A stretch of 64,000 nt of DNA from IMG/VR virus record IMGVR_UViG_3300031994_002305, positions 101,073 to 165,072 of that record. One strand, 5' to 3'. The DNA comes from a virus. Its lineage: Duplodnaviria; Heunggongvirae; Uroviricota; Caudoviricetes. The first letter of the stretch is position 1. The number at the start of each line of letters is the position of its first letter. Shown here one piece after another: positions 2,266-34,593 of this stretch. Under the pieces are notes generated by a model that saw only the letters and a list, made by a program, of their open reading frames with translations, was not told the DNA's origin and searched no databases. Position numbers and translations under genes: made by a program.

Positions 2266-2674
2266 GGGCTCATTTTTGGTATTTGATTATTAATTTGAGT
2301 ATTAAAATCATGCCGTCTTGGTTATGACGTTAAAGAATCAAAACAATAAATGCTAACGATGAATTAGTAGACGATGCTTGGCTTAACAGCTGGGAATATC
2401 GTATGGCTGCTTAATCCCTCAGGGATACCATTTTACATAGTTAGGTTATAAATAAGCAAAGCCGGCGCAGTGGGAACCTACGGGTCGGGCAACAGAAGTC
2501 CCACATAAGATAGCGGTGGATATCTGGCTATTCAATTCAGATGTGTCTCCTGGTTTTCTAATTTTATGGAAACGTAAGAAATTAGATATTGAAGATAGAA
2601 ACTTACAAAAGCATGTAACAAATTTTAGTATGACGGTTGGTAAGACGACGGTTCGAATCCGTCTGGGTCCACTA
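2266..2674 (+). ncRNA. ssrA: tmRNA
   Basis: 5' GGGCTCA pairs with 3' TGGGTCC including G3.U70; discriminator A at 2671; T-arm GACGG-TTCGAAT-CCGTC; tag frame 2352-2414 encoding ANDELVDDAWLNSWEYRMAA* after an AATAAAT resume context. Confidence 0.93.
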
Positions 2675-18179: not shown

Positions 18180-18404
18180 ATTCTCCTTTTATTGTTTTCT
18201 ATATTATAATATGAAGTATTGGGAAAAAACTTGCCTATGTATTAATGACTTGATATTTGAAGATTATCAATATCATAAAGGTAGAGAATATCAAGTAGAT
18301 GTATATCCATTGTTTTATAAAATTTATAATAATGGTGGATGGGATGATTATATTTTCTTTGAAGGCGAAGACAATTTTAATAAATATTTTAAATTAATTG
18401 AATA

Positions 18405-18581
18405 ATGATACAAGAACAGGAAATATTAAATGATATTCAATCTTTACGAAAGAAAACAGAATTATTAGCAAATCCTTTATATAGTGATTTTTGTGGATCT
18501 CATTTTTGGGGAGATATTGATAAACTATTAAGAGAAGTTGAACTTAAATTAATTAAAGATAAAGAAATGTATAAATGGTAA
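18405..18581 (+). CDS. small hypothetical protein (58 aa, not in track)
   Basis: hand translation MIQEQEIL...EMYKW*, translationally coupled on both sides. Confidence 0.55.
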   Translation: MIQEQEILNDIQSLRKKTELLANPLYSDFCGSHFWGDIDKLLREVELKLIKDKEMYKW

Positions 18582-19228
18582 CTAATTATAATGTAATAGG
18601 AAAGAATAGTTCTATAAAAGAAGGTTGGGCTTTATCATTAAGTGCATTTCTTGCAGGATTATGTATATCTATAGGATGTATTGTTAATTTAATGGTAGGT
18701 GGTGGAATTCCTGGCGCAATATTATTTACATTTGGATTAATTGCTGTAGTTCATTATAAATATGCCTTATATACTGGTACAGCTGGATTCATATCAGAAT
18801 GGAAAGATATATTAATTTTATTTTGGTGGATATTTTGTGGTAATTTTGTTGGGTGTTGGATAACTGCTGATGTTGCTTCATATGCTATACCAGAATTAGT
18901 AGAGAAGTCGAATCATATAATGGAATTAAGAGCACAAGTAGATATTTGGCAGGCAATGATTCGTGGTATATTTTGTGGATTCTTAATGACAACCGCTGTT
19001 AAGTTTGCACGAGAAAATAAATGGCTTCCACTTTTATTTGCAGTACCTGTTTTTATATTAGCAGGATTTTATCATAGTATAGCTGATGCGTTTTATTTAC
19101 AATGCTCTGACTATATTCATATATTTAAATCTGATATAGGATCACAAATACATGCTAATTATTGGATGACTGTATTAGGTAATTTTATTGGGTGCAATTT
19201 ATATAGATTAAAATTTATAGATAAATAA
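18575..19228 (+). CDS. formate/nitrite transporter (FNT) family channel
   Basis: several TM helices; LYTG, GNFVG, CGFLM, FILAGFYHSIAD, VLGNFIG motifs. Confidence 0.88.
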   Translation: MVTNYNVIGKNSSIKEGWALSLSAFLAGLCISIGCIVNLMVGGGIPGAILFTFGLIAVVHYKYALYTGTAGFISEWKDILILFWWIFCGNFVGCWITADVASYAIPELVEKSNHIMELRAQVDIWQAMIRGIFCGFLMTTAVKFARENKWLPLLFAVPVFILAGFYHSIADAFYLQCSDYIHIFKSDIGSQIHANYWMTVLGNFIGCNLYRLKFIDK

Positions 19229-19251
19229 AGGGAGAATCTTATTCTCCCTTT
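19227..19251. terminator. bidirectional terminator between convergent genes
   Basis: AAAGGGAGAAT-ctt-ATTCTCCCTTT. Confidence 0.8.
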
Positions 19252-19742
19252 GTTATTATTGTATCTTTATTATCTTTAAATTTATTTTTAACTTTTTGTA
19301 CACCTAAATACATATCATCAATAACTTTTTCATGCATATCTTTTTTACGACGTTCTTTACATAATTCTTTATTTGTATCTAAAATAACTATTTTTACGTT
19401 AGCTCCAGCTTTACGTAACTTATCGTAAAGATTTTGAACATAACCTAATTTAATATTTGTATTATCAATAACAAAATCTTTTCTATCATGTATTAATTTA
19501 TCAATTCTATCAAAATTAATCTGACGAACTTCTTTTTCTTGTTCTTTATTGCCTATTCGTTTTTGATTAATATTTTTCATAATACCTAATTCAACACGAA
19601 TAGAATCTTGATTAACTATATTAATATCTTTTTTTAAATTATTTTTTATCCAAGTTGATTTACCAGATCCAGGCACACCAACCATTATCCAAACATTAAA
19701 TGGATTAAGTTTTTCTAATATAAATGATAATATATGTTTCAT
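19239..19742 (-). CDS. P-loop kinase (AAA_33/polynucleotide kinase-like) with CTS-like leader
   Basis: MVGVPGSGKST, DSIR, VIDNTN, R-x-x-R lid; starts MKHILSFILE. Confidence 0.82.
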   Translation of the reverse strand: MKHILSFILEKLNPFNVWIMVGVPGSGKSTWIKNNLKKDINIVNQDSIRVELGIMKNINQKRIGNKEQEKEVRQINFDRIDKLIHDRKDFVIDNTNIKLGYVQNLYDKLRKAGANVKIVILDTNKELCKERRKKDMHEKVIDDMYLGVQKVKNKFKDNKDTIITKGE

Positions 19743-20245
19743 TTTAAATCTTGTAAAAAATCTTTAAGTTCTTTAAGATGTTCTTGCTCATCTGATAAAA
19801 TTTCTTTAAGTTTTGAATTAGATATTGGATCTATATCTTCTGTCATTTTAACTAGTTCTTCATAAGTCTCTATTGCACCTTCTTCATTCTTAATATTGTC
19901 TTCTAATGTTTTCTTAATATCAATATTACCTTTATTCCATGTTGGCGCAATATATTTATGTTTTGCTGTTTCCCATGAATTAGGAGACATTGTTATATCT
20001 TCAATTGTACCATCAAGCTGAGCAATACGTTTCATAAGCCAATATCCATGGTCTTCTAATTCATCTTTGGCAGTATCTTCATAGAATTTTTCAATATCTT
20101 TACGATCTGTTCCAGCTAACCATTCTTTAACAATTACATATCCATACCATGCATTAAGTTCTTCTTTTAATGCATTTTTCATGGCATCAATAATTTGTTG
20201 GTTATTATTTGAAGCTTCAATAATTAATTCATTAATAGATTTCAT
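19739..20245 (-). CDS. ferritin/bacterioferritin-like protein with CTS-like leader
   Basis: EELNAWYGY, DELEDH...KRIAQLDG, NEEGAIETY, DEQEH di-iron pattern; starts MKSINELIIE. Confidence 0.85.
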   Translation of the reverse strand: MKSINELIIEASNNNQQIIDAMKNALKEELNAWYGYVIVKEWLAGTDRKDIEKFYEDTAKDELEDHGYWLMKRIAQLDGTIEDITMSPNSWETAKHKYIAPTWNKGNIDIKKTLEDNIKNEEGAIETYEELVKMTEDIDPISNSKLKEILSDEQEHLKELKDFLQDLK

Positions 20246-20257
20246 ATTTAAATAATA

Positions 20258-20294
20258 TTTGAATTTTTTTGAAATAATAACTATATATTATTTG
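20258..20294 (+). promoter_or_regulatory. repeated early-type promoter
   Basis: TTTGAA-18-TATATA. Confidence 0.6.
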
Positions 20295-20311
20295 TTAAAA
20301 ATAAAATATAT

Positions 20312-20671
20312 ATGAATTGGCTAAAAAGAAATTATTGGTGGTTAACACTTGTTTTTATTGGATCTTTAATTCCTATTTGGATAATTGCACAAATTATTCA
20401 TTATAATTCAGAACCAAGACATAAGATTTATGTTGAATGGGTTGTGTATGATTCCGGTACAACCAGAACATGTCATGGAACTTATGAAATTGCTGGTGAA
20501 CAATATGGAATAAGAGATGAATGGCATAGTACAGGTAAACATGGTGGAGCTTATAGAGCCGTATCAATTATTGATAAAGATAATTGGGGTTCATATATTG
20601 AAAAACAATCTGTATGTATTTATACTGGTTTACATGATGTACAAGTTACTAAAATTGAAATAGTAGAATGA
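20312..20671 (+). CDS. membrane-anchored hypothetical protein
   Basis: N-terminal TM segment. Confidence 0.7.
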   Translation: MNWLKRNYWWLTLVFIGSLIPIWIIAQIIHYNSEPRHKIYVEWVVYDSGTTRTCHGTYEIAGEQYGIRDEWHSTGKHGGAYRAVSIIDKDNWGSYIEKQSVCIYTGLHDVQVTKIEIVE

Positions 20672-20864
20672 AAACTAAAATTAAGATCACAGAAATTAAT
20701 GAAAATATCATAGGTTGGCATGGAGATATGCTTAATAGATATTTTAATGAAACACTTATGTTACGACATGCTAGAAATGTTGGAGATGAAGAAACTGTAA
20801 ATAATTATGTTTTAGGACAGTTAAATAAGTGTAAGGAATTTGGTGGAATTAATTTTAAGAAGAT

Positions 20865-21278
20865 ATGAGAAAAGTTTTTATTAAAGATTTAGCAGAAGCA
20901 CGAGCAAAATCATTGTTTACAAAAGATTTTTTTCTTACCGTAACTGATTCGTGGTATCTTGATGAACTTTTTAGATTTGAAAATAACACCAAAAAAACAT
21001 TAGGTAAGAATCCTCGTAGAACTGAAAAGGATTATTACATGGAATTAATGAGTAATCTTTTTAATTCATACGAAGATAAATTCTATAGTGGTCCTCTTGC
21101 TCAAAATGCTTATGGAGAATGTATTAATTGTTTTGATAAATTATTACGAATAATTGAACAAAGCAATAAGAAATTCAGTCAATTTGATATTGATGAAGAT
21201 ACTATAAAAAAAATTAAAGATCTAGGCAATATATTTGTTTATAAACATAATGAATTTTGTGAAGATGCTAATAAGTAG
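20865..21278 (+). CDS. hypothetical protein
   Basis: 137 aa ORF. Confidence 0.7.
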   Translation: MRKVFIKDLAEARAKSLFTKDFFLTVTDSWYLDELFRFENNTKKTLGKNPRRTEKDYYMELMSNLFNSYEDKFYSGPLAQNAYGECINCFDKLLRIIEQSNKKFSQFDIDEDTIKKIKDLGNIFVYKHNEFCEDANK

Positions 21279-21516
21279 AAAACCATTTTGTAATAATTGT
21301 AAGAACAGAGGCACAGCTTGGGGTCCATCAGATTATAATTTATATCCATGCTCATGCGGCGCGGAAATACATAAGCTTCATCCTAATAAAATTATCGTAA
21401 AAGAAAGTGAGCCTGGAATGTATTTTGTTGGGGAACGACAAAGATGCCCTGACAAAAGATTTTTTGTTCCAATTTATACTAAAGAACAACAGTTACAGTA
21501 TAATCATCACAAATAA

Positions 21517-21552
21517 TTTGAATATTATTTAAAAAATACTATATTATAATTG
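21517..21552 (+). promoter_or_regulatory. repeated early-type promoter
   Basis: TTTGAA-17-TATATT. Confidence 0.7.
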
Positions 21553-21567
21553 TAATTATTAAAACTT

Positions 21568-22116
21568 ATGGAAAAAGTACTTTATATTTATGGCTTCGGT
21601 TCAAATCCAAAAGATTCTTCTACAATGAAAGTTTGCAAAGAAATAATGGAGGAATTGGGTTATGAACTTGTTTCTTATGAATATGACCAATATGAACCAA
21701 ATGAAGGTCTTAATGATTTGGAAGATTTCATTAGTGAAAATAATATTAAGCATGTAATTGGACATTCTCTTGGTGGTTTTCTTACATTGTGTTTGAATTC
21801 AAATGTTAAGAAGTTGGTTATTAATCCATGTATGAAACCGCAATTTGAACTTCCTAAACTTGGTAAAGTTTCTCCAGGAATGCTTTATGATTATGAAGCT
21901 TTGGAAGAGTGGTTGAAGAGTGGAGATGATACTCCTTGGGTAAGTCAAACTGATGAAGTAATGGGATTGTTTGGTAATGATGATGAGTTATTTAGTTATT
22001 ATGAATCATTTAAGAAACGATACCCGCGAAGCTATAAATTTAATTCAACTCATCGCCCAACAGTTGAAAGTTTTACAGAAGATATCAAAACAAAAATAAA
22101 GGAGTTCTTTTGTTAG
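21568..22116 (+). CDS. YqiA/YcfP-like alpha/beta esterase
   Basis: YIYGFGS, IGHSLGGF nucleophile elbow, INP, DDE...H triad pattern. Confidence 0.85.
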   Translation: MEKVLYIYGFGSNPKDSSTMKVCKEIMEELGYELVSYEYDQYEPNEGLNDLEDFISENNIKHVIGHSLGGFLTLCLNSNVKKLVINPCMKPQFELPKLGKVSPGMLYDYEALEEWLKSGDDTPWVSQTDEVMGLFGNDDELFSYYESFKKRYPRSYKFNSTHRPTVESFTEDIKTKIKEFFC

Positions 22117-22124
22117 AACTCCTT
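22099..22124. terminator. hairpin between convergent genes
   Basis: AAGGAGTTCT...AGAACTCCTT. Confidence 0.7.
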
Positions 22125-22164
22125 AGTTTTTAACTCATATCCCAAATTAGACGTTTAATATCTT

Positions 22165-22785
22165 TTATGCTTTATATAATAAATTTTCTTTAAATATTTC
22201 TTTTCTATTTACATCCAATATTCTTGTAATTTGAATCGGTGCATCTTCTTCTAATGTTAATTCATATTCATCTGGATCAATTATATTTGCTGCTATAGTT
22301 TCTTCCCAATTAACATCTTTTGGATCAACTAATGCACATATTGTAATATTGTTTCTTGAACTACTTACTGCTCCATGAGAATCTCCCATACCTTCCATGA
22401 ATGTCCAATAGATACCTATATTTCCTTTATATTTAGAAAATGAATCATTTAAAGAAATAACACGTTCAATTTTAATTAAGCCTCTTTCTAATTCTAATGT
22501 TAATTGTTCATCAACAATATCTTTTATATATTTTATAAAATTTTCTTCATCATCTTCTACCGAATCAATATCGTGTTCTTCACAATAATCTTCAGCATAT
22601 ACAGTATTATTGATATTTAAATAAAATTTAGGATTATTAAAGGGATTACATTCATTAAAATAATCATAATAAGATTTTGAATTATTCTTAAGTTCACCAG
22701 GCTTTGAATTTTCTTTAAGAAACTCTATAAATTTTTCAATATGTTCATTTAAAGATTCTATGATATATCGACTTAGCATTTTCAT
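22165..22785 (-). CDS. CTS-leader protein, possible ADP-ribosyltransferase fold
   Basis: starts MKMLSRYIIE; ERVI / GIYWT / DEYEL spacing resembles R-S-ExE ARTs (inference). Confidence 0.45.
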   Translation of the reverse strand: MKMLSRYIIESLNEHIEKFIEFLKENSKPGELKNNSKSYYDYFNECNPFNNPKFYLNINNTVYAEDYCEEHDIDSVEDDEENFIKYIKDIVDEQLTLELERGLIKIERVISLNDSFSKYKGNIGIYWTFMEGMGDSHGAVSSSRNNITICALVDPKDVNWEETIAANIIDPDEYELTLEEDAPIQITRILDVNRKEIFKENLLYKA

Positions 22786-22786
22786 C

Positions 22787-23416
22787 TTATTGTTGTTCTA
22801 ATAACTTTGAATCTGTTTTATCATCAGCATCATATTTACGAGCTAGTTCTTTAAGTTTTTGACGTACTTCTTCCGGTACATCTACTTTACCTTTTGGATT
22901 ACCCATCATAAGTTTAGTATGTGGGTGACCACCAATTTTTCTTGTATAGTAATATCCATCAGGCTTTATTTCAATGAATTTTTTATCTTTCATTATTTCT
23001 TGTGCAATCTCAGCTTTAACTGGCATAGCACCTTGATTAAACATTGTTGAAACAGCTTTACCAGAAAATTCTCCCCATGCTTGTCTTTCTGGAAGTAAAT
23101 TATCTTCAATCATAATTTTCTTAAGAGATTGAACTCCTAATTCAGTTCCATCTGTACCCGCATAACATGCTTTACGACCCCCTCTTTTATTGTTATATAC
23201 GATACAAGCAACTATCTTTCCTTCTTTACGAACTAATTTCCATAATGTTGTTTCATCTATTAATTGGTCAACAGAATCCATACCTGCCATACCACCACAA
23301 TATTCGTATGATTTATTTAAAATCTTCCAAACATCATTAGCGTATTTTTTCATATCTTCTGGTCTATGACAATTAACAAAATGCTCAGTTATTATATATT
23401 CTTTTAAATTTTTCAT
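22787..23416 (-). CDS. CTS-leader hypothetical protein (possible GNAT-like fold)
   Basis: starts MKNLKEYIITE; VWKILNKSY..CGG and GTDG motifs. Confidence 0.6.
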   Translation of the reverse strand: MKNLKEYIITEHFVNCHRPEDMKKYANDVWKILNKSYEYCGGMAGMDSVDQLIDETTLWKLVRKEGKIVACIVYNNKRGGRKACYAGTDGTELGVQSLKKIMIEDNLLPERQAWGEFSGKAVSTMFNQGAMPVKAEIAQEIMKDKKFIEIKPDGYYYTRKIGGHPHTKLMMGNPKGKVDVPEEVRQKLKELARKYDADDKTDSKLLEQQ

Positions 23417-23422
23417 ATATAA

Positions 23423-23452
23423 TTTGAATTTTTTAAATAATATTCTATTTTG
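23423..23452 (+). promoter_or_regulatory. repeated early-type promoter
   Basis: TTTGAA-17-TATTTT. Confidence 0.6.
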
Positions 23453-23891
23453 TATATATAATAATAAAAATTATGACAAAATATCCATATTATATTGCAG
23501 CATATTTTAATGCTGGAATTCTTAGAAAAATATTTGATAATCATAAGTTTGCGTGTTATAATTGTTGTATGGATGCTATACGCAAACTTTTGGAAAATAA
23601 ATGGGTGAAGAAAATGTTTGGATCTCAGATAGTTATTTTGGAATATGCTGGCAAACATCAAATAAAAATTATTAATGTTATTGAAAACGGTCAAGGCCAC
23701 ATTATTGCAGAACCAATAAAATACGATTATGAGAAGCAATGTTAAACTTGAATGCATTATTGTTCCAAATAAAGGATCATTTGTAGTTGGTAATACTTAT
23801 ATAGGATTTGATCATTGGTATAATGCAGACGCTGGTGAAACAGAAATGGTGATTACTGATGATAATAATAATTTACAGAAATTTAGAGATT

Positions 23892-24605
23892 ATGAGTGGT
23901 ATAAATATTTCAGAGAAACCAATTAAGAATATACTTTGTTATTCTCATTATGATTTTGATAAGATCATGGAGAAAAATGGATGGATAGAATCACCACCTA
24001 AAGGTGTATCATGCATCTCTATTTGTTCTCCAAATGAGGGAGATTTATCTGAACATTGGTTTAAAGATTCAATTTTTGTGGGAGAAGAAGGTGCAGCAAT
24101 CTTAAAACGTAATTTTAGAGTATTTAATCTCGATATTGATGATGCTAGTCCATTTTGGTTTGATAATCATGAGAGTGAATGTTACGATAAATCATTAGAT
24201 TTATATAAAGATGGAAAAAAGAAACAATCAAATGCTTACTTTAATAACCTCTACATATCTGGTAAGAATAGAGAATTCGTGGATATCATTCACGTTCTCG
24301 ATTATGAAGAGGCATATGACCTTGTTGATTGGATTGATTGGCGAATCAAACATGACGACACTATTTACGTTCACTGTGCCGTTGGAGCAAGCAGAAGTCA
24401 AGGAGTTGTTAGATATATTGTCGATACCTATGGAGGAGAATATGATATTAGATTAAATCCAAATAATCCTAATAATACATATAATCCCCATGTCGTACTA
24501 ATGCTTAAGAGAGCTTATATAACATTTATGCAAGATATGGGTGATTCATATTTACAAACTGAACCAATGAAATTTAACGAAAATATTAAATTAAATTTAC
24601 TATGA
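23892..24605 (+). CDS. protein-tyrosine/dual-specificity phosphatase
   Basis: VHCAVGASRS = CX5R P-loop; likely start MSGINISEK at 23892. Confidence 0.8.
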   Translation: MSGINISEKPIKNILCYSHYDFDKIMEKNGWIESPPKGVSCISICSPNEGDLSEHWFKDSIFVGEEGAAILKRNFRVFNLDIDDASPFWFDNHESECYDKSLDLYKDGKKKQSNAYFNNLYISGKNREFVDIIHVLDYEEAYDLVDWIDWRIKHDDTIYVHCAVGASRSQGVVRYIVDTYGGEYDIRLNPNNPNNTYNPHVVLMLKRAYITFMQDMGDSYLQTEPMKFNENIKLNLL

Positions 24606-24698
24606 GTGAACAAGAAAAAGAAAGATTGCACCAAATTCAACATGTAGAATTGGACGCGGATTATTTAAGAGAAATATATAGACAAGCAGACAAATAAT

Positions 24699-25007
24699 AT
24701 GAAAAGGTTATTTATATTTTTATTTTGCTTAATAATAATGAGTTGTGGGTGTGGTCATAAAGAAGGTGAACATATTCCAAATGATACGATGCTTTGCGTA
24801 GTAGATTATAAGGCAAGAACTTGGAGTTATAATGTTGTGTTTCATATGCCAGAATGGAAATATAAAGTAACATTTAGAAATATACAAACTGGTAATACAA
24901 GTATAATTCATAAAAAATTATTTTATGATATGTTTAATGAAGGTGATACAATTTATGAAATCGTACAACATTGCCCTTATTATAGAGTAGAACTAAAAAA
25001 TAGATAA
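24699..25007 (+). CDS. putative lipoprotein
   Basis: hydrophobic leader followed by SCGCG. Confidence 0.55.
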   Translation: MKRLFIFLFCLIIMSCGCGHKEGEHIPNDTMLCVVDYKARTWSYNVVFHMPEWKYKVTFRNIQTGNTSIIHKKLFYDMFNEGDTIYEIVQHCPYYRVELKNR

Positions 25008-25008
25008 T

Positions 25009-25206
25009 ATGAGTACAATACAAGAAATTGCAGAAAAATTGGTTAATCTTTCTGTTAAAGAAGTTAATGAACTTTCAATGATTCTGAAGAATGATTCTAT
25101 TGAACCAGCCAGATATAATATGTATGATGTTAAACCACAAAAAATAATGACTCCTAAGCAATATGGACAACAACAAATTCAAAGAAAAATTAGAAGACAT
25201 CCGTGA
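25009..25206 (+). CDS. ribosomal protein bL12 (L7/L12) N-terminal domain homolog lacking the C-terminal domain
   Basis: IAEKLVNLSVKEVNELSMILK...IEPA matches the recalled Bacteroidetes bL12 NTD; followed by a basic tail. Confidence 0.75.
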   Translation: MSTIQEIAEKLVNLSVKEVNELSMILKNDSIEPARYNMYDVKPQKIMTPKQYGQQQIQRKIRRHP

Positions 25207-25447
25207 AAAATATGGAATGCAATATGCATTATTTTGGATGGGATATTATTTATGGAAAGCTGACCAAGAAAAACTTGAAGAGGAAGCAAAAAAATCATTA
25301 GAAGAAATCCAAAAATCATTTGAGGAACATAAGAAAAAAGAAGAAGAACTAAGATTTTATTTTGAGCATCCTGAATTAATGCCAAAAGTTACTTCACCAA
25401 AAGAATATGGAATGTCTTTAAAGAAAAATAAACGATATAAATATTGA
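25163..25447 (+). CDS. hypothetical protein with SPKEYG basic tail
   Basis: 94 aa ORF. Confidence 0.7.
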   Translation: MDNNKFKEKLEDIREKYGMQYALFWMGYYLWKADQEKLEEEAKKSLEEIQKSFEEHKKKEEELRFYFEHPELMPKVTSPKEYGMSLKKNKRYKY

Positions 25448-25497
25448 ATTAATATTATTTAGTTTCTATATATTATACAATAATCAAGCAAACAAAT

Positions 25498-25656
25498 ATG
25501 AATAAAACAGATTTGAAAACAGATGAACTTAAGATTGCCTATAAGGTAATTACTAAGATTATGAAAACAAATAATCTAATGAGAGATAATTCTTTTAATA
25601 GAGTTCGTAATTGGATATCTAATTCACTTTGTGATTCATTGACAGATGACGAATAA
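25498..25656 (+). CDS. small hypothetical protein (52 aa, not in track)
   Basis: directly follows promoter ATTGAA-18-TATATA and AATCAAGCAAA leader. Confidence 0.6.
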   Translation: MNKTDLKTDELKIAYKVITKIMKTNNLMRDNSFNRVRNWISNSLCDSLTDDE

Positions 25657-25814
25657 ACTTAAAACATATTTACAATGGAGATGCTTAAAGAATTGGCCAG
25701 GAAAATATATTAAGACTAATTTATATATTGATCTTTGGATCTCTAATGTAACACATACTCAATGTGAGTATTTTGAAAAGGAAATGAATAATTTAATTAA
25801 TAGAGGAATTTATA

Positions 25815-26162
25815 ATGGGTAGGCAACGAAAATTCATTATTGTAAAGGATTGGTCTGGTAAGAATATTGAAATTCGTATTGGATATCCTATATATCATCG
25901 TGATTTGTTAAATAAGTCTGATGAAAAAAATAATATTGACTGCTACGGTGGTGGTTATTGGTCTGTAGATTTTGAAAATAAAACAATTAAACTTTATGGT
26001 TCATCTGATGATTTTGGAAAACCAAATAAAGATGATATTCAAAAGGCAATCAAAAAATTGGATCCACATGATTGGTGGCAAATAGGACATGCAATTGAAT
26101 CTTCATATGACCTCGATAATGATGAGGAATATGATAGTTTTAAGTTTATTGTAGATTATTAG
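25815..26162 (+). CDS. hypothetical protein
   Basis: 115 aa; HRDLL...YGGGYW...LYGSSDDFG. Confidence 0.75.
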   Translation: MGRQRKFIIVKDWSGKNIEIRIGYPIYHRDLLNKSDEKNNIDCYGGGYWSVDFENKTIKLYGSSDDFGKPNKDDIQKAIKKLDPHDWWQIGHAIESSYDLDNDEEYDSFKFIVDY

Positions 26163-26234
26163 TAAATTAAATTATTTATAAATCTAAGTCATTCTAGATA
26201 GCTCTAATGACGATTAATTAAATACAATTGAATT

Positions 26235-26612
26235 ATGATTAAAAACTTTAATTTAACGGGAGAAATTCAAAATATTTTGTGCGATATGGTAATTGATATT
26301 CATAAACTACTTGATGAGGCACAGAATACAAAAGTTAACATAACAATTGGAAATGCAGCCAATATTTCTAAATTTAATGATCGTATTGTAAGCATTTTTA
26401 ATTATGTTAATTCAATGTATAAGGAGTTTATTGAGACTGGTAACTATGAGGCAACAATTTCTCGCATGATGTATTTGTATTCTTGTATTGATAAGAATTA
26501 TAATTATAAAGAAGGTACATATCCTTATAAATCAATTAATTCAATTAAAGATGTTATTGATAGTGCTTGGGATGATTTAAGTAATTTAATTAAGAACTAT
26601 TACAATTTTTAA
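26235..26612 (+). CDS. hypothetical protein
   Basis: 125 aa ORF. Confidence 0.75.
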   Translation: MIKNFNLTGEIQNILCDMVIDIHKLLDEAQNTKVNITIGNAANISKFNDRIVSIFNYVNSMYKEFIETGNYEATISRMMYLYSCIDKNYNYKEGTYPYKSINSIKDVIDSAWDDLSNLIKNYYNF

Positions 26613-26615
26613 TGT

Positions 26616-27101
26616 ATGAAGAAAAATAAGATTATTCGTAAGCTTTATAATGCATTGATTGATAAGGGTTTTGATGATAATAAGTATAACGAAGTTATGG
26701 GTTATACTCGCGATAAGTTTGAAAATCCTATTTATGTAAAAAAACTTATTGTTGAAGGTGTTGAAGGAATTGATTCTATTGCAGTAACTGCAACAGAAAA
26801 AGATTTTGAAGATGCATGTGATGCAAATATTCGTGTTGCTTATAATGATCATAATATTGGTAAACGTGTATTTGTTTATGCTAATGAACTAAATGGCCAG
26901 GTTTTGGATAATATTTTAAATGCTATTATTAAGAAGTATTATCCAGTTTCTAAGGTATGTCATTGGAAACGTCTATGGGATGTTGTTGAAAATTCATATT
27001 ATAATAATGGAAAAACATTTATTGGTAATGTTGAAGTACCAGTTAATTCATTGGCATTTATTTTAAATGATTATAAGGAATATCAGAATTTAGAAATTTA
27101 A
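26616..27101 (+). CDS. hypothetical protein
   Basis: 161 aa ORF. Confidence 0.75.
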   Translation: MKKNKIIRKLYNALIDKGFDDNKYNEVMGYTRDKFENPIYVKKLIVEGVEGIDSIAVTATEKDFEDACDANIRVAYNDHNIGKRVFVYANELNGQVLDNILNAIIKKYYPVSKVCHWKRLWDVVENSYYNNGKTFIGNVEVPVNSLAFILNDYKEYQNLEI

Positions 27102-28337
27102 TTATGAGTTGGAGCATAAGTGAATTAGATAAGGATAAGACAGAGCAATCAATTGCGAATGAATCAGCTCGTCTTGATAGTTGTAGAGAAGCATTGGATA
27201 AGCTCAAGAAGGAATATGAACAAAAGCGATATCATTTTATTCATGTAGTTCTTGCACAAATGGAAGATAAAATAACAACATTGGAAACTTCTATTGCATC
27301 AGGAGAAAAATTTCTTGAAGAATGCAAGAATCATTTGAAAACTTTTGAAAATTAAATTTTTAAGTACTATTATTAATTATCAAACAAATAATAAATGAAA
27401 TACTTAGGTTTTGATGGCGGTTGGTTAATTGAAAATTTTGCTATTTTACCTAGCATTAGTTATAGTTGGATGAGAACTAATAAAGCTGGTCTTTGTTGGT
27501 CTGTACAATTTGCATGGCTATGGTGGTATTTTGATTTTGGAACTATTCGTAAGAAACTTAAAGAACAAGGATATTAATATGATTGAAATTAAAATAGCAG
27601 AAGTATATTATTCTGAAGATCCTAAGCAAGCAGCGATTTTACGTACTGACTGTGAAAAGTTTATTGAAGGATTTAAGAAATTGTGTAATTTAACAAATAT
27701 GCATAATGTTGATGTATATAATTTACATTCCGTAAATATTCCTACAAAATTGAAATTTAATGATGGGTCATCAATAGGTATTGGTAAATTATTTGAAGAG
27801 ATAGGATTTGAATAATGAATTATGATAATAAAAATGCTTTCCCATGTGAATTTGATTGGGTATTCATACTTAAAAAAATGAAACAATTTGACGTAGATTT
27901 TGCTAGTTTATATGGCGTAAAGATTTTTGAAAAGGATTTTTCTGGAGCTATTAAACGTTCATTAAAACATGGGCCTATTCATTTAAACAAAGAATATATT
28001 AATGCAATATTACGAAAATATAACAAAAAATGAAATTCTATACGCATATAATTATTTGCTGTATATGAATAAATATCCTGGAACGGCGTGCTTGCATTGG
28101 TATTCCATGACAACCAGTACATTTAAATCACGTCAGAAATTTCCTGAGATATATGATTTTGGATTTTTATATCCTGATATGTCAATATGGTTTACACCAG
28201 AAAAAGGAAAAGAAGTTCTTCATATTAGAGAAGATTTTGATAATACATTAATGAAAGATATAATTAAAGATATGGATTCATTTATTGAATCTATGAACGA
28301 ATTAATAAACATAAACAAATAAATAAGGAGATAAACT

Positions 28338-29786
28338 ATGAGTAAATTAAATTCCACAAAAAAGTCTTCAACACTTAAGGCTAATCAAGTAACTGTTGGT
28401 GAAATTGCAGGTTGTGTTACAAATACAGCTGCAGCTCAAACAAATATACAGTATCTTCGTCGTCTTGTACTTGCCAATCTTCTTTGGGAGGACATTGCGT
28501 ATGCAGACGGTATAAGTATCGCTGGAGAGATTAAGCGTCTTATTCCACTTTGTGATCCAAAGGATGTAGCTTTACTTACAATTGAAGCGCGTACAATGCA
28601 AAAGCTTCGTCATACACCTCTTTTCCTTGCGGTTGAGATGTGTAAGCATGATGCTACTCGTGCATATGTTCGTGAAGTACTTCCAAAGATTATAACTCGT
28701 GCAGATATGCTTACTGATTTCATGGCTCTTTATTGGGCTGATGGAAAGTGTCCTATCTGTAATGCAGCAAAGAAGGGTCTTGCAGATGCGTTCCATAACT
28801 TTAAGGAATATCATTTTGCTAAATACGACCGTGATGCTGAGATTAAGCTTCGTGACGTAATGTTCATGGTTCGCCCAAAGCCACAGAATCAATTGGAGGA
28901 AGCTCTTTACAAAAAGATTGCTGACCGTACTCTTGAAACACCAGAGACATGGGAGGTACTTCTTTCACTTGCTCACACACCAAGTGAGAAGTCAGCTGTT
29001 TGGACAAAACTTATTACAGAAGGTAAGCTTGGTGGTATGGCTATGCTTATGAATATTCGTAATATGCAGCAAGCTGGTGTTCCTCGTCCAATTATTGAGC
29101 AAGGTCTTAATAATATTAATGGAACTATGCTTCTTCCACTTCAGTTCCTTAAGGCAAGACAAGAATCATCCGGTTTTGACCGTGAGATTGAAGATGCTAT
29201 GCTTAAGTCATATGCTAACCTTCCTAAGCTTCCAGGTAAGACTCTATTTATCGTAGACGTATCAGGTTCTATGGGATGTGAAGTTTCATCTAAATCAAAA
29301 TTCTCACGTATTGATGTTGCAGCTGCTATGGCCATGCTTGCAGCTAATCAATGTGAAGATTTTGAATTAGTATGTACTGCTGGCGATGACTGGAAATTAG
29401 TTGAAGCACAAGAACGTATTAAGTATCCTTCTAAAGGATTTAAGATGATTGATGATATTCATTCAGCTGCACATAGATGTGGTGGGGGTGGTATATTCAC
29501 ATATCAATGTCTTGAAAAACTTCGTAAGGAGCTTGGTGATAAGATTCATACTTATGATCGCGTAATTGTGTTCTCAGATTCTGCTGATATTGATGTAGCA
29601 CATGGTAAGAATGTTAAGCCACGTCCATTTGGTAAATATAATTACATTTGTGACGTATCTTCTCATAAGCATGGTATCGCATATAAGGGTGTATGGACTG
29701 CAGAGATCACTGGTTGGTCAGAGCACTTCTTAACTTATATTGCAGCCTTTGAAGGTATTGAAAATGCCTTTGGTGATTTGAATTAG
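28338..29786 (+). CDS. TROVE domain (Ro60/Rsr) RNA-binding protein with C-terminal vWA domain
   Basis: LRRLVLANLLWED, LRHTPL, RADMLTDF, FAKYDR...KLRDV, TWE, NIRNM, VDVSGSM, VFSD, ITGWSE. Confidence 0.92.
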   Translation: MSKLNSTKKSSTLKANQVTVGEIAGCVTNTAAAQTNIQYLRRLVLANLLWEDIAYADGISIAGEIKRLIPLCDPKDVALLTIEARTMQKLRHTPLFLAVEMCKHDATRAYVREVLPKIITRADMLTDFMALYWADGKCPICNAAKKGLADAFHNFKEYHFAKYDRDAEIKLRDVMFMVRPKPQNQLEEALYKKIADRTLETPETWEVLLSLAHTPSEKSAVWTKLITEGKLGGMAMLMNIRNMQQAGVPRPIIEQGLNNINGTMLLPLQFLKARQESSGFDREIEDAMLKSYANLPKLPGKTLFIVDVSGSMGCEVSSKSKFSRIDVAAAMAMLAANQCEDFELVCTAGDDWKLVEAQERIKYPSKGFKMIDDIHSAAHRCGGGGIFTYQCLEKLRKELGDKIHTYDRVIVFSDSADIDVAHGKNVKPRPFGKYNYICDVSSHKHGIAYKGVWTAEITGWSEHFLTYIAAFEGIENAFGDLN

Positions 29787-29825
29787 TATAGACTAATAAT
29801 CTATATTAATTTAATCTTATTGAAA

Positions 29826-29896
29826 GCCGACATACTAGAAATAGTCACTGTAACAGTTAGGCATACTTATTCTTCACGAATAGGTATGCCTTTTTT
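29826..29896 (+). ncRNA. candidate Y-like small RNA plus terminator downstream of TROVE
   Basis: GCCGAC...TAGGC closing two hairpins (ACTA-GAAA-TAGT, ACTG-TAA-CAGT); 14-bp terminator stem 29859-29891 plus U-tract. Confidence 0.4.
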
Positions 29897-30119
29897 CTTT
29901 TTAAATATATTAAGTTTTAATTATGACAGAAGATGAAATTAAAAGACATGAAGAATGGTACAATTATTATTTTGGTTATTCACATCTAACACCAGAAAGA
30001 AGATGTAGACGTGGTGCATTAACCTTAGAATCAAAGTATTAATAAAAATATTTAATTTATAATTATGGGAGATTGGGAATATGATTGGGAAGATTAATAC
30101 ATATATTTAAAATTGTATT

Positions 30120-30248
30120 ATGACATTAGATGAAGCAATTAAACATTGTAGAGAGAAATCTCAAGGTTGTTCAGAATGTGCTAATGAACATTATCAATTG
30201 ATGGAATGGTTGATTGAATTGAAAAAATATAGGGAAGCTAACGAATAG
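30120..30248 (+). CDS. small phage protein MTLDEAIKHC...CANEHYQL
   Basis: 42 aa hand translation; recurrent phage motif. Confidence 0.6.
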   Translation: MTLDEAIKHCREKSQGCSECANEHYQLMEWLIELKKYREANE

Positions 30249-30262
30249 CTTCCCTATTTTTA
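30229..30262. terminator. bidirectional terminator
   Basis: ATAGGGAAGCTA-acgaa-TAGCTTCCCTAT plus T-run, at a convergent junction. Confidence 0.8.
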
Positions 30263-30766
30263 TTGTTGATTTTTTAATGATTCATTAATTTCAAGATTAG
30301 CTTCAGATTCAGCTTTCTGTTTTCTTTTCATTAGTTCTTCTAATTCTTTTTCTTTCTTTTCGATTTCTTTTAAAAGACCTTCAAGTTTTTGTTTTCCCTT
30401 AGAATTAATAAACTCTTGTATAACTTCTTTTGAAGTTCCAATATAAATTGATCCTATTTCCTCACCAAATCCATAAAATTCTACTTGATGTTTTTCATCA
30501 GTATAATCAATAGATCCAAAATGATATTCTGTATAATGATCAACTTTATATTCATTTTCAGAAAGATAAATATAAATATAGTACGAATCAAATTTTGAAC
30601 CCTTTTCCATTTTTACCTTCTTAATATCAGTTACTGTTGCTTTTACAATTTTTGATTCCCCATCTTTTAAAAGATATACTGTTGTACCTTTACGAGGACA
30701 ATGAATATTTTTGGCATTAGCTTCTAATATTAAATTTTCATTAATTTTTTCGTTTAAGTTTTTCAT
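30260..30766 (-). CDS. CTS-leader hypothetical protein (start MKNLNEKINE)
   Basis: leader motif; C-terminal coiled coil. Confidence 0.75.
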   Translation of the reverse strand: MKNLNEKINENLILEANAKNIHCPRKGTTVYLLKDGESKIVKATVTDIKKVKMEKGSKFDSYYIYIYLSENEYKVDHYTEYHFGSIDYTDEKHQVEFYGFGEEIGSIYIGTSKEVIQEFINSKGKQKLEGLLKEIEKKEKELEELMKRKQKAESEANLEINESLKNQQ

Positions 30767-30770
30767 ATTA

Positions 30771-31109
30771 TTATTTAACATGTGTTTTTATTTCTTGCCA
30801 AATTCGTTTATCAGATTTTGAAAACTCATCATCAGGACAACTTAATACATAATCAGCTGTTTTATTGATAATATCATGATATTCTTTAATAAATGACCAT
30901 TGAACTCTTGAATTATCATCTTCCAATTGTTCTAAAACAGCATTTAATTGTAAAAATTCTTCTTGTTCTTCTTTAGTTAATTTTCCAAAGAATTCATCGT
31001 ATAATTTATATTCTTTCCACATTTGATATGCAATCATAATTGTAAGCATATCTAATTTTCTTAGAGTACCTGATTTACCTTCGCTTATTATATCTTTAAT
31101 ATTTTTCAT
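30771..31109 (-). CDS. CTS-leader hypothetical protein
   Basis: starts MKNIKDIISE. Confidence 0.75.
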   Translation of the reverse strand: MKNIKDIISEGKSGTLRKLDMLTIMIAYQMWKEYKLYDEFFGKLTKEEQEEFLQLNAVLEQLEDDNSRVQWSFIKEYHDIINKTADYVLSCPDDEFSKSDKRIWQEIKTHVK

Positions 31110-31486
31110 TTCATTTGATTAATATAATTAGTTATTTTGGATTTTTTCTTAATATCTTCATATGGAATCAACTTTTTATCAATAATCTTTTTAGCAATAT
31201 TCATGATTGCATATTTTTCATAAGCTTCCTGTGAAGAATAATTTTCTTTTAATTCCCAAAAATAATCATTGATTGCTCTTCTTGTTTTATTTGATTGAAT
31301 TTTATATACCCATGCATTATCATATTTACTAATACAAAGTATTAAATCTTTTATCTCATCATATTCAAAACATATACCTGAAATATGTTGGGCCGTTTCC
31401 CATGGAAGTTTAAAACCATCAACACCTAAAACTAGCCAATATTCTTTATTTTGTGATTCATTTATATATTCTTTTAATTGTTTCAT
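31106..31486 (-). CDS. CTS-leader hypothetical protein
   Basis: starts MKQLKEYINE. Confidence 0.75.
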   Translation of the reverse strand: MKQLKEYINESQNKEYWLVLGVDGFKLPWETAQHISGICFEYDEIKDLILCISKYDNAWVYKIQSNKTRRAINDYFWELKENYSSQEAYEKYAIMNIAKKIIDKKLIPYEDIKKKSKITNYINQMK

Positions 31487-31489
31487 AAT

Positions 31490-31792
31490 TTATCTCCATT
31501 TATGTTTTAATATTAATAATTGTTGTACTTTAACAGTTTTAGGTACATTATAATTTTCTTGATCAAAATCTAATGTTTTAATAGTTCCAACAAGTTTTTG
31601 GCTATCCCATTCTTCCAATATTCCTCTATAAAGACGTGGAGTTTTCGTATTATTATCCATCATCTTGTCTTTAATGCCATCTTCATAATAAAACATAACA
31701 TCTTCAGGAATTTTCATATTTTCTCCAAGAACATCAAAATGATTTTCTGAAGAATCATTAGTTTCATTTATGATATCTTTAATATCTTTCAT
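31490..31792 (-). CDS. CTS-leader hypothetical protein
   Basis: starts MKDIKDIINE. Confidence 0.75.
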   Translation of the reverse strand: MKDIKDIINETNDSSENHFDVLGENMKIPEDVMFYYEDGIKDKMMDNNTKTPRLYRGILEEWDSQKLVGTIKTLDFDQENYNVPKTVKVQQLLILKHKWR

Positions 31793-31812
31793 ATTTAATA
31801 TTTCCTATATTT

Positions 31813-32238
31813 TTAATATCCGATACAACAACTCATATCATATGTATCAAATGGATCATCAACAGTTCCTGCTGCATGACAATTAAGTGTTCCAACCATA
31901 AATGGATCTTCTGCTCCTTTTACGTAGATTTCAACTTTGTATTGTTTCCATTGTGACATACCATCTTTTGATTTACGATATCCACCATCATCAGGAGCAA
32001 TAGTAACTTCATATTCGTGAGGTGCATTTTTTATATTCTTAAATGCATCTTCAATATCTTTCTTAACCAAGCCAACACCTTCCCAAGCATCATCTCGATA
32101 AAACTTGCCGGTTGTACCTGTCTTTTCAAGTTGTTTATAAATTGCATTTTGAACCTTTTTCTTTTCAGGTGCTTTAATTGATTTATCTAATACACCATCT
32201 GAATATGATTCATTAAGTATATCTTTTAAGTTTTTCAT
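31813..32238 (-). CDS. CTS-leader hypothetical protein
   Basis: starts MKNLKDILNE. Confidence 0.78.
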   Translation of the reverse strand: MKNLKDILNESYSDGVLDKSIKAPEKKKVQNAIYKQLEKTGTTGKFYRDDAWEGVGLVKKDIEDAFKNIKNAPHEYEVTIAPDDGGYRKSKDGMSQWKQYKVEIYVKGAEDPFMVGTLNCHAAGTVDDPFDTYDMSCCIGY

Positions 32239-32246
32239 ATTAATTA

Positions 32247-32837
32247 TTATAATTTTCCAAGTGCAAATCCTTTAATAAACCATTCAGATGTTTTATCTTC
32301 ACCTTCCCATTTTACATCATATCCTTTATATGAATTAACAGGTGCATTTAATTTAAGATTACCTGATTTAACATTATCTTCAACATCTTTATGAGATATA
32401 ACCTTAAATGATTTAGCAGTTTTATTGATTAAAAGATAATAACCATCTTTATTGAAATTAACTAATGATCCTAATGATATAGCTCCAAAATATTTATCAG
32501 ATATCTTTACATCAATAAAGTAAACAGGTTTATCATTTTTCATAATAATTAAGTCACCATTTTGGGCATCAAATTCACTCTTTTCCTTTTGACTTAATTT
32601 ATTAAAATCACCATCTTTTACTTTTGAATAATATTCAGCAGTTCCAATAATTGTAAAATCACCTTCATTAAAATCTTTTGTAATTAAAAGTTCGTTTTCT
32701 TTTTGTTTATCAAATTTATCTGGATCTTGTTCTGACCATGATTGTAATTTACTATAATCAACAGAACCCATCATTCTTTTAATCATTGGCATTAATTCAC
32801 TTAATGATTCAAATAAATATGTTTTTAATGTTTTCAT
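32247..32837 (-). CDS. CTS-leader protein, possible PD-(D/E)xK nuclease
   Basis: starts MKTLKTYLFE; GDLII...FIDVK motif. Confidence 0.5.
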   Translation of the reverse strand: MKTLKTYLFESLSELMPMIKRMMGSVDYSKLQSWSEQDPDKFDKQKENELLITKDFNEGDFTIIGTAEYYSKVKDGDFNKLSQKEKSEFDAQNGDLIIMKNDKPVYFIDVKISDKYFGAISLGSLVNFNKDGYYLLINKTAKSFKVISHKDVEDNVKSGNLKLNAPVNSYKGYDVKWEGEDKTSEWFIKGFALGKL

Positions 32838-32879
32838 AATTTATATGTATGTATTTTAAATCTTTTATAATTACTTATT

Positions 32880-33128
32880 TTATTTTTCTCTAAGTTTTAA
32901 TTCAATTTTATCTCCAGGTTTTGACATATCAGCAATTGTTTCATAAAATGATTTAATAATATGAAAACGATTTTCTTCTTTATTTAAATCATATTTCATT
33001 GATTTCATACCTTTTTCTAAGCAATCTTGAAGTTCATCTAATTCATCAACATTTAATAATATTGTTGAATCTGATGAATATACTTTTGGTGTTCTTGATT
33101 CTTTTATTTTATTAATTAAGTTTTTCAT
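32880..33128 (-). CDS. CTS-leader hypothetical protein (start MKNLINKIKE at 33128)
   Basis: leader motif; the track's upstream extension overlaps the previous gene. Confidence 0.7.
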   Translation of the reverse strand: MKNLINKIKESRTPKVYSSDSTILLNVDELDELQDCLEKGMKSMKYDLNKEENRFHIIKSFYETIADMSKPGDKIELKLREK

Positions 33129-33145
33129 AATATGTAATTGTGTAT

Positions 33146-33901
33146 TTAATCTCCTTGATATTTGCCTTGTCCATATCCCCTTGACCAAGCAAGTTTTTCG
33201 TGATCTGTTAAGCTGTTCCACCATTTATCCCAAGCTTTTGCAGCTTTTTGTTTTTCTTCTTCATCTTTTCTTCGTTTTTCAATTTCAGCTTTTTCTTTAT
33301 TATCAGCTTCTTTAGACCATTCTTCAAGATGTTTAATATCTTTTAATTCTTTAATTTTTTCATCACGTTCTTTATTAAATTGTTCGTTATTCAATTTAAA
33401 CTCTAATACATTATTGCCTGCATCAATAACTGTTACTGAAATTTTTCCTTTCATAAATGGCTTAATCATTTTAAACCAATCATTCCAATCTTTATTATAT
33501 TTATCATAATTATATTCTACAAATTTATGAGAATACCATGCACCAGCCCAAGTGTATTCTTGAATTTCTGGTATTTCAGTCCAATCTTTCGTATTCTCTT
33601 TGTTTGGAAATTTCTTATATGTTATTTTATCTGCAGGTAATGGAAGTCTAATCATTTGATTATAATTATTAACAAACTTAACTATTTTTCCTTCATCCTT
33701 TTCAGTTTGTTCTTCTTTACCAATACTGAAAAATATTTTGTAAATATTTGATTTTGTTATTTTATAATCTTTATTTTTTGGGCCTTCATTATAAATATCA
33801 AATGTATAGGGTAATTTAATTATGTCTTTACCTTCACCTATGATTTTAAAACATTCATCTTTTAATGAAGTCTCATTAATATAAGTATTTAAAGTTTTCA
33901 T
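33146..33901 (-). CDS. CTS-leader hypothetical protein
   Basis: starts MKTLNTYINE; C-terminal coiled coil ending GYGQGKYQGD. Confidence 0.78.
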   Translation of the reverse strand: MKTLNTYINETSLKDECFKIIGEGKDIIKLPYTFDIYNEGPKNKDYKITKSNIYKIFFSIGKEEQTEKDEGKIVKFVNNYNQMIRLPLPADKITYKKFPNKENTKDWTEIPEIQEYTWAGAWYSHKFVEYNYDKYNKDWNDWFKMIKPFMKGKISVTVIDAGNNVLEFKLNNEQFNKERDEKIKELKDIKHLEEWSKEADNKEKAEIEKRRKDEEEKQKAAKAWDKWWNSLTDHEKLAWSRGYGQGKYQGD

Positions 33902-33907
33902 ATATAA

Positions 33908-34507
33908 TTAATTTAATTTCTTTCCCATGAATCTTTGTTCAATTTGACCATTTTTTAATATTTTAATACGTTCTTGAATTGATATATGATTTATTCTTTC
34001 TCCTCTAAATAATGTTTTAATTATAATATCTACTTTTGGGCCATTTTCTTCAAGTAACCATATTGCCCATAATGTTTTTTCAGTAGGTCTTGCACCATCT
34101 GGAATTAAGCGTTGATTCTCTTCTTTTAAATAACATTGACATTCAATAGTCCATGCATTAACTTTTCTTTTATCATATCTATTAAAAAATGGTTTTAACT
34201 TACCATCATAATTTAATTCCATTATGTCATTCCATGCATATTTAAACATATCAATAATTTCTTGACGATCAATTTTTTCGCCATCACCACCCTTTTCAAC
34301 TGGACGTTCTAATCTATCTTCAGCGTGTGTTCCCATTTTAAGTTCATCACCATCATTTGAAGTATAAACTGTGCGATTTCCTTCAAGAATCATTTGACGA
34401 AACTCATTAGATAAAAATTCTAATGAACTTTCATCTAATTCAAATATAATGTTTCCTAATTTATTTTCCAAAGAATTACGATTTAAATATTCTAAAATTG
34501 AATGCAT
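33908..34507 (-). CDS. hypothetical protein, first gene of the - strand cluster
   Basis: 199 aa; THAEDRLER motif. Confidence 0.75.
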   Translation of the reverse strand: MHSILEYLNRNSLENKLGNIIFELDESSLEFLSNEFRQMILEGNRTVYTSNDGDELKMGTHAEDRLERPVEKGGDGEKIDRQEIIDMFKYAWNDIMELNYDGKLKPFFNRYDKRKVNAWTIECQCYLKEENQRLIPDGARPTEKTLWAIWLLEENGPKVDIIIKTLFRGERINHISIQERIKILKNGQIEQRFMGKKLN

Positions 34508-34593
34508 AATGTTTATTAACCTATTCTATAAATAAAAATAAATTTATATGATTATATTAATTATCTATTTAATTATAATTTTTTCATATAATA

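Follow-up and report, generated by a model that had tools for sequence, protein, structure and literature searches.

The window analysed here is a stretch of 64,000 nucleotides, covering bases 101,073-165,072 of a 376,291-bp virus record in IMG/VR (IMGVR_UViG_3300031994_002305, Caudoviricetes), and positions are those of the window unless the genome is named. Twelve open reading frames (ORFs) on its minus strand begin with a similar ten-residue leader, hereafter called the tag, which resembles the capsid-targeting sequence of phage T4 and could direct the proteins behind it into the phage head. Two of these genes form an operon of their own. One encoded a P-loop kinase of the AAA_33/polynucleotide-kinase type (19239-19742, 167 aa, MKHILSFILE, leader score 24.8), with matches to AAA_33 (E 5e-20) and PHROG 505 (E 3e-22), and the other a ferritin/rubrerythrin-like four-helix protein (19739-20245, 168 aa, MKSINELIIE; Pfam Ferritin, E 5e-16). 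About 60 nt 5' of this operon lay a promoter-like element, TTTTATTTTTAAC (20294-20306, minus strand), which matches the form called L4 of a motif that was also found 5' of the protease, capsid, sheath and tube genes. The second tagged operon contained a gene without known family (22165-22785, 206 aa, MKMLSRYIIE, leader score 24.7) and a gene for a GNAT-like fold (22787-23416, 209 aa, MKNLKEYIITE), whose AlphaFold model had a mean predicted local distance difference test score (pLDDT) of 87 and matched GNAT acetyltransferases in Foldseek (probability 1.0, E 7e-5). A promoter-like element in the loose form only, TAATTTTTAT (23464-23473, minus strand), was found 5' of it, which is weaker evidence.

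The remaining eight tagged genes belonged to a nine-gene operon on the same strand. Its first gene (33908-34507, 199 aa, no family) starts with MHSILEYLNR, which is leader-like but has no Glu10 and scored 2.3, so it was counted as untagged. It was followed by MKTLNTYINE (33146-33901, 251 aa, no known family in the family screens), MKNLINKIKE (32880-33128, 82 aa, no known family, leader score 22.3), a probable PD-(D/E)XK nuclease with MKTLKTYLFE (32247-32837, 196 aa), MKNLKDILNE (31813-32238, 141 aa), MKDIKDIINE (31490-31792, 100 aa), MKQLKEYINE (31106-31486, 126 aa, no known family), which had the best leader score of the genome, MKNIKDIISE (30771-31109, 112 aa) and, as the last gene, MKNLNEKINE (30260-30766, 168 aa). 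No known family was found for 31490-31792 and 30771-31109 in the Pfam screen, or for 31813-32238 and 30260-30766 in the Pfam and PHROG screens, and in total eight of the twelve tagged proteins in the window were without known family. The strict form of the promoter-like element, TTATTTTTATTTA (34529-34541, minus strand), was located 34 nt 5' of this operon, in an intergenic region that also carries a CTATATTA element oriented towards the gene at 34650 on the plus strand.

An earlier note on this DNA had listed the twelve leaders, and all of them were present where it had placed them. Its observation of Glu at residue 10 in eleven was also borne out (starts at 19742, 20245, 22785, 30766, 31109, 31486, 31792, 32238, 32837, 33128 and 33901), with the Glu of the 23416 leader at residue 11. 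Orthologues of that protein begin with MKNLNEFINE-QLITEHFVN, and the copy in the window seems to have lost four residues, with the leader joined to the ITE of the body itself. For the genes starting at 30766 and 33128 the leader begins at an internal ATG of the longest ORF, and such starts abolish the overlap with the upstream gene. The consensus of the tag was M1, K2, x, I/L at 4, x, E/D/T at 6, Y/F at 7, I8, x and E10. A Sec, Tat or lipoprotein signal peptide was rejected on inspection of this consensus, in which charged or polar residues at positions 2, 3, 5, 6, 9 and 10 break the hydrophobic core, and it is also disfavoured by folded cytoplasmic-type domains that begin at residues 17-30.

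A greedy ORF caller gave 604 ORFs over 90% of the record (476 on the plus and 128 on the minus strand). With a score threshold of 10, the leader profile was matched by 41 of the 604 N-termini and by 11 of 104,654 internal positions, several of the latter being mis-called starts, and the scores were bimodal. Because of this confinement to the N-terminus and the bimodal scores, a chance origin of the leader could be excluded. A test that used no motif, a BLOSUM62 graph of residues 2-12, joined 48 N-termini into one connected set, while the largest set for residues 31-41 had 3 members. When alternative starts were allowed, about 47 of the 604 ORFs (~8%) were tagged, 12 of them in the window. The tagged genes were clustered at ~33-57 kb (minus), 120-135 kb (minus, this window), 184-191 kb (plus), 229-234 kb (plus), 254 and 272 kb (minus) and 365 kb (plus) of the genome. 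The restriction to the minus strand that the earlier note had seen thus held within the window and failed genome-wide, where 27 tagged genes were on the plus and 20 on the minus strand in the profile scan. The plus-strand ORF at 54548 (MKDLLNSHFE), which had been regarded as a near member, scored 3.8 and is not a member, and the ORF at 1005-1370 (plus, MKDIVETINQ) was marginal.

The bodies behind the tag were mutually unrelated, as had been claimed, and no BLASTP pair at E<1e-3 was obtained among the 47. They could be one large paralogous family in which the N-terminus is the last conserved part, and clustered arrays like those of tandem paralogues would fit this. Such an origin is extremely improbable, however, for the bodies fall into distinct superfamilies (ferritin, P-loop kinase, NDK, HAD, GNAT, Pol-beta and PD-(D/E)XK), not even one BLASTP pair links them, and remote homologues exist that have no leader. 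The tag is modular, and precedes a kinase, a ferritin-like protein, a GNAT-like protein, a nuclease, NDK, HAD, a nucleotidyltransferase and many proteins of no known family. NDK, HAD, GNAT and Pol-beta nucleotidyltransferase bodies were found outside the window, and a Pfam match was absent in 26 of 30 further tagged proteins screened there. PHROGs gave nothing for most of the cargo, nor for several large genes downstream of the L motif, the TTATTTTTAT-type element treated below. The net charge and isoelectric point of the tagged bodies were like those of other small proteins (median 5.6 vs 6.3), and no basic DNA-binding class appeared.

The nuclease candidate was assigned from several lines. 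D95 and D109-x-K111 were invariant in 23 homologues, and the model (pLDDT 89) had weak but consistent fold matches, the best of them to the fusellovirus D212 nuclease (probability 0.99, E 2e-3), to Hjc resolvases and to restriction enzymes, and an Atlas lead also gave PDDEXK; the protein is probably a PD-(D/E)XK nuclease. Of the folds that the earlier note had proposed for the cargo, the kinase, the ferritin-like protein and this probable nuclease stood. No ADP-ribosyltransferase was found among the tagged proteins of the window by Pfam, Foldseek or family screens, and a GNAT fold was found. The note's T4-style modular tag came through all the sequence tests that were run, and what had to be given up were the ADP-ribosyltransferase and the minus-strand restriction.

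Pfam domains start just past the tag, AAA_33 at residue 17, ferritin at 19, NDK at 19, HAD at 22 and Pol-beta nucleotidyltransferase at 30. In the nuclease model residues 5-10, and in the GNAT-like model residues 1-10, had pLDDT below 50. The tag is therefore an add-on outside the folds, since the domains begin at residues 17-30 and the leader is of low confidence in two confident models. Remote homologues of the GNAT-like protein (P0183-P0187, 31-45% identity) have no leader, and closer ones have it, some with the leader fused directly to the first strand. The GNAT-like gene is adjoined by an untagged gene for a UPF0227 alpha/beta-hydrolase (21568-22116, plus). In another metagenome a protein of 362 aa (P0176) begins with the leader-like MKTLREYLSN, followed by this hydrolase (PF05728) and then a homologue of the GNAT-like body, a fusion that appears to be an example of modular shuffling around the tag.

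The same leader could in principle be conserved as DNA or RNA, either as an optimum for translation initiation or as a recombination joint by which genes spread. Codon 2 was AAA in 40 of 43 tagged genes, and the arrays are tightly packed with TAA-ATG junctions, as this would have it. Nevertheless, 123 untagged genes also begin with MK, no conservation was found in the DNA upstream of the tagged genes, and synonymous codons vary at the conserved positions: Ile8 was encoded by ATT in 18, ATA in 21 and ATC in 1, and five different Ile/Leu codons were used at position 4. Selection therefore acts on the leader as protein and not as DNA. Among orthologues of the ferritin-like protein the individual residues of the leader differ but its pattern is kept (MKSINELIIE, MKQLLTYINE, MKNLESFIFE, MKRLSQIINE), and the leader was present in 107 of 120 homologues of this protein. 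The fixed Glu10 and the small residue after it would not be predicted by an account at the RNA level either, and we regard such a cassette as very improbable.

In IMG/VR, 16 contigs encoded capsid proteins 48-93% identical to that of this genome. In whole records at 58-67% capsid identity the DNA pattern of the leader occurred 16, 9 and 6 times, against 0 in the reversed control. The leader profile was matched by 32 of 222 ORFs of a 170-kb fragment, an incomplete relative on which the tagged share was thus 14%, and by 16 of 342 ORFs of a complete 294-kb genome, while only eight body families recurred among the three genomes. The set of tagged genes changes fast between related phages and the tag is retained. 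The tag system is specific to the gut/rumen clade to which this genome belongs. In the 170-kb relative (G003), about 17 tagged proteins have an extended leader in common, M(K/I/N)xLNxYIIEKLHLNKD (for example 147407-149122 and 18265-24085), and a similar extension, EKMHMNE, was found in one GNAT-like orthologue (P0136). The extended leader may be a second class of tag or a second signal past the cut site.

T4 offers a precedent for such a peptide. Its internal head proteins enter the scaffolding core through N-terminal capsid-targeting sequences of 10-20 residues, which are removed by gp21 with a cut after Glu and suffice for the packaging of foreign proteins (PMC5694885; PMC3012670). The T4 starts were read from NC_000866, where IPII and IPIII begin with MKTYQEFIAE-A, as the earlier note had stated, gp24 with MAKINELLRE-S and Alt with MELITELFDE-D; gp23 has FLTE-A at residues 62-66 and gp21 starts with MNEPQLLIE-TWG. 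In the 43 strong members of the tagged set, position 8 was Ile in 40 and Leu in 3, and Glu10 was present in 42. Residue 11 was Ser, Gly, Ala or Thr in 31 of the 43 (72%), against a background of 19% (binomial p 8e-14).

The protease that could cut at such a site is encoded outside the window. A Peptidase_S77 (T4 gp21) domain was identified at the start of a 537-aa ORF (genome 212552-214165; PF03420, 45.9 bits, cut-off 27). The C-terminal half of this ORF is scaffold-like: an acidic linker and a coiled region are accompanied by the 12-residue sequence W(I/V)xEEFAPEVQN, repeated in tandem 6-9 times. A possible (I/V)-x-Glu cut site is present in every repeat, and the number of repeats varies among relatives. 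Directly 3' of the protease-scaffold ORF is a capsid gene of the Gp23 family (PF07068, 95.8 bits, cut-off 24.4). The first 41 residues of the capsid protein are highly conserved across 17 relatives and end with IHEIHE before a Ser or Ala. At this candidate site MFE-A or IHE-A is found in more distantly related members, and a variable Gly/Pro-rich stretch comes next. The N-terminus of the protease itself has the pattern M..K.C(L/M)(I/V)(Y/F)E-TLG, in which Glu10 is invariant.

With Ile-x-Glu and a small residue as the signature of a cleavage site, the leader might be nothing else than a removable propeptide or degradation signal, which would control activity or stability, be cut by the prohead or another protease and have no role in packaging. 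Leader copies also occur in frame at domain junctions inside two long ORFs outside the window, which would agree with this: ...RKMKTINEYINEE... at residue 356 of the ORF at genome 188014-189402, and ...MMALKDYIIES... at residue 179 of the ORF at genome 185907-186827. These copies suggest either fused two-part cargo or internal starts that were not recognised. A bare cleavage site, however, needs none of the residues at positions 1-7, where M, K, I/L at 4 and Y/F at 7 are conserved like the cut site, and in T4 a peptide of this kind serves for targeting and is also cleaved (PMC5694885, PMC3012670). A propeptide without packaging is accordingly held to be quite improbable.

Two promoter-like motifs divided the genes of the genome. 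The motif CTATATTA was located about 33 nt 5' of the ATG in 41 genes, all on the plus strand and none tagged, and was 11-fold enriched in upstream gaps; in the window it occurs, for example, upstream of 21568 and 34650 (plus). It probably marks a distinct transcription class, perhaps early or middle. A strict element of the TTATTTTTAT(A/T)TA type had 19-26 occurrences in the genome, nearly all within 130 nt upstream of a gene and in the sense orientation. The strict element was found 5' of the genes for the protease-scaffold, capsid, tail sheath (PHROG 34521, E 8e-86) and tail tube, and of several very large ORFs. It was likewise found 5' of five or six tagged operons, including the nine-gene operon of the window and, in the L4 form, the two-gene operon starting at 20245, and in a 427-kb gut relative it also precedes a tagged orthologue of the nuclease and the large neighbours of that gene. 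When the same strand was walked upstream, 44 of the 47 tagged genes met a loose TTATTTTTA-type motif first and 0 met CTATATTA; the untagged genes split 144 to 228. Judged by the genes in its company, the TTATTTTTAT-type class may be a late one. The best reading of the minus-strand pattern in the window is that small islands of this class lie amid plus-strand genes of the CTATATTA class.

These results bear on the possibility that the leader serves for docking or sorting to some place other than the capsid interior, with a likeness to T4 that is convergent; a tail or baseplate compartment, an assembly of several enzymes or a phage structure within the cell could be such a place. Several bodies are of the nucleotide-metabolism type (NDK, P-loop kinase, HAD and Pol-beta nucleotidyltransferase), which are cytoplasmic in T4, and complex prediction yielded no answer on the binding partner: for the protease-scaffold with the tagged ferritin-like protein the score was 0.00, without controls, which is evidence neither way. 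Such a tag is nonetheless unlikely, although it deserves more weight than the other alternatives. The leader ends in the motif that is also seen at the conserved candidate sites of protease and capsid protein, and the tagged operons have a promoter-like motif in common with head and tail genes and in no case CTATATTA. The real capsid-targeting sequence of T4, MKTYQEFIAE, moreover scores as a member on the leader profile of this phage, with 13.7 bits against a maximum of 9.6 among the 557 untagged N-termini.

The decapeptide is best explained as a T4-type capsid-targeting and cleavage propeptide used on an unusually large scale, to which we give a probability of about 0.7, and an unusually large set of proteins is probably packaged and injected by this phage. 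The tagged proteins would be made together with the head proteins, the tag would bind the scaffolding core formed by the protease-scaffold fusion, and the capsid shell would close around them. The gp21-family protease would then cut after Glu10 and free the mature protein inside the head, from which the cargo would exit with the DNA at infection. We infer the binding, cleavage, packaging, injection, cargo function and anti-defence role in this scheme from sequence. For the clade as a whole (gut/rumen phages of ~300-470 kb), the odds are slightly in favour of some 15-50 proteins being loaded by one tag; such an injected proteome would exceed in size and modularity all those inferred for other phages.

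Several points weigh against this explanation. Some of the cargo is unexpected for injected proteins (NDK, HAD hydrolase and the ferritin-like protein). The Fisher p of 3e-17 for the split of tagged and untagged genes on the upstream walk treats clustered genes as independent. The loose regex, T[TA]ATTTTTA[TA], is AT-rich and weakly directional, its frequency is only about twice that in shuffled intergenic DNA, and the loose form also precedes the gene of a UvsX-like recombinase; the conclusions rest on the stricter promoter forms and not on this regex. The DNA pattern of the leader was not enriched over the reversed control in PTm1, pT24, PAU, Lak-B5 and the huge-phage record LR756500, and no shared N-terminal leader was obtained for PTm1 in the motif-free test. 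Since the cultured relatives are without the leader, their published proteomics is not transferable to this phage.

The record, from an uncultured gut or rumen phage, has a G+C content of 26.9%, is estimated to be 98% complete and is without end repeats. No Shine-Dalgarno sequence was visible in the inspected upstream sequences of the genome, and words like TAnnTTTG were overrepresented 5' of genes genome-wide. A TROVE/Ro60-like RNA-binding protein of 482 aa (28338-29786, plus) was ~60% identical to genes of crAss-like Bacteroides phages, and no Y-RNA-like family was found near its gene at Rfam gathering thresholds. Relatives of the phage are present in gut metagenomes. Taken together, the TAnnTTTG-like words, the lack of a visible Shine-Dalgarno sequence, the crAss-like TROVE match and the gut-metagenome relatives indicate that the host probably belongs to the Bacteroidota.

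Other genes of the window were also annotated. A membrane protein of the formate/nitrite transporter family (18575-19228, plus; PF01226, E 3e-24) adjoins the tagged kinase-ferritin operon. A protein of 248 aa (23859-24605, plus) had a weak match, below threshold, to the catalytic domain of dual-specificity phosphatases (PF00782, E 3e-4; 21 bits, cut-off 33.5). A phage-encoded transfer-messenger RNA was identified at 2266-2674 (plus), for which ARAGORN gave the tag peptide ANDELVDDAWLNSWEYRMAA and Rfam RF00023 a score of 69 bits (gathering score 47).

If the logic of T4 holds here, a ten-residue motif would identify ~47 delivered proteins, most of them without family, in an abundant clade of huge gut/rumen phages, and would give a defined list of first-minute effectors for phages of Bacteroidota that are hard to culture. 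Cargo loading would then scale to a sizeable share of the genes of a jumbo phage, and the decapeptide would be a natural short tag for loading large capsids. Should the explanation be true, new cargo would need no more than the addition of the tag to a captured or invented gene, and the tag could serve as a sequence-only readout of injected effectors, a natural list of proteins that may act in takeover or against defence in Bacteroidota. In T4, the proteins with a capsid-targeting sequence pass into the host along with the DNA; among them, IPI inhibits a host restriction enzyme (PMC3012670) and Alt is annotated as modifying the host RNA polymerase (NC_000866).

No description of the tag system was found in the jumbo-phage reviews that were searched or in a 2025 preprint on similar gut phages of 360-402 kb. 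The 'Jug' gut phages of this preprint (PMC12363816), which also reports metatranscriptomes for similar phages, resemble this phage in size, G+C content and coding density. Among named phages, the best matches of the capsid protein were PAU, Tenacibaculum and Lak phages, with 11 Pseudomonas phage records among the weaker matches. The nearest named relatives, Tenacibaculum phages PTm1, PTm5 and pT24, Sphingomonas phage PAU and Prevotella Lak phages, have a capsid protein of the same gp23 type with 31-38% identity. PTm1 also shares the protease-scaffold fusion, annotated as 'prohead core scaffolding protein and protease', and in PAU an 'internal capsid protein' is annotated beside the protease and scaffold genes.

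In the jumbo phages phiKZ, 201phi2-1 and SPN3US, many head proteins, those of the ejection and inner-body kind included, are packaged and are processed after Glu by a gp21-related protease (PMC5694885), and their propeptides are thought to act like the capsid-targeting sequences of T4 (PMC5694885). These propeptides, however, are mostly longer than 100 residues and have Ala/Ser/Gly-x-Glu (PMC5694885), and the leader described here shows neither feature, being a uniform tag of 10 residues with Ile or Leu at that position.

T4 is the closest in the tag itself. Both peptides are N-terminal and ten residues long, with M1, K2, Ile8 and Glu10; position 4 is hydrophobic, position 6 acidic and position 7 aromatic, and a small residue follows the Glu. 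Both precede otherwise unrelated proteins, and each phage encodes a protease of the gp21 family and a capsid protein of the gp23 type. The tagged gene set changes fast in both, as is known for the internal proteins of T-even phages (PMC3012670). The system described here differs in being known from sequence alone, in its host, which is probably a member of the Bacteroidota and not of the Enterobacteria, in the fusion of the protease to the scaffold and in having recognisable enzymes as many of the bodies. Whereas T4 has a handful of tagged proteins, namely three internal proteins, Alt, gp24 and core proteins (PMC5694885), the tag was found here on ~47 genes in several operons.

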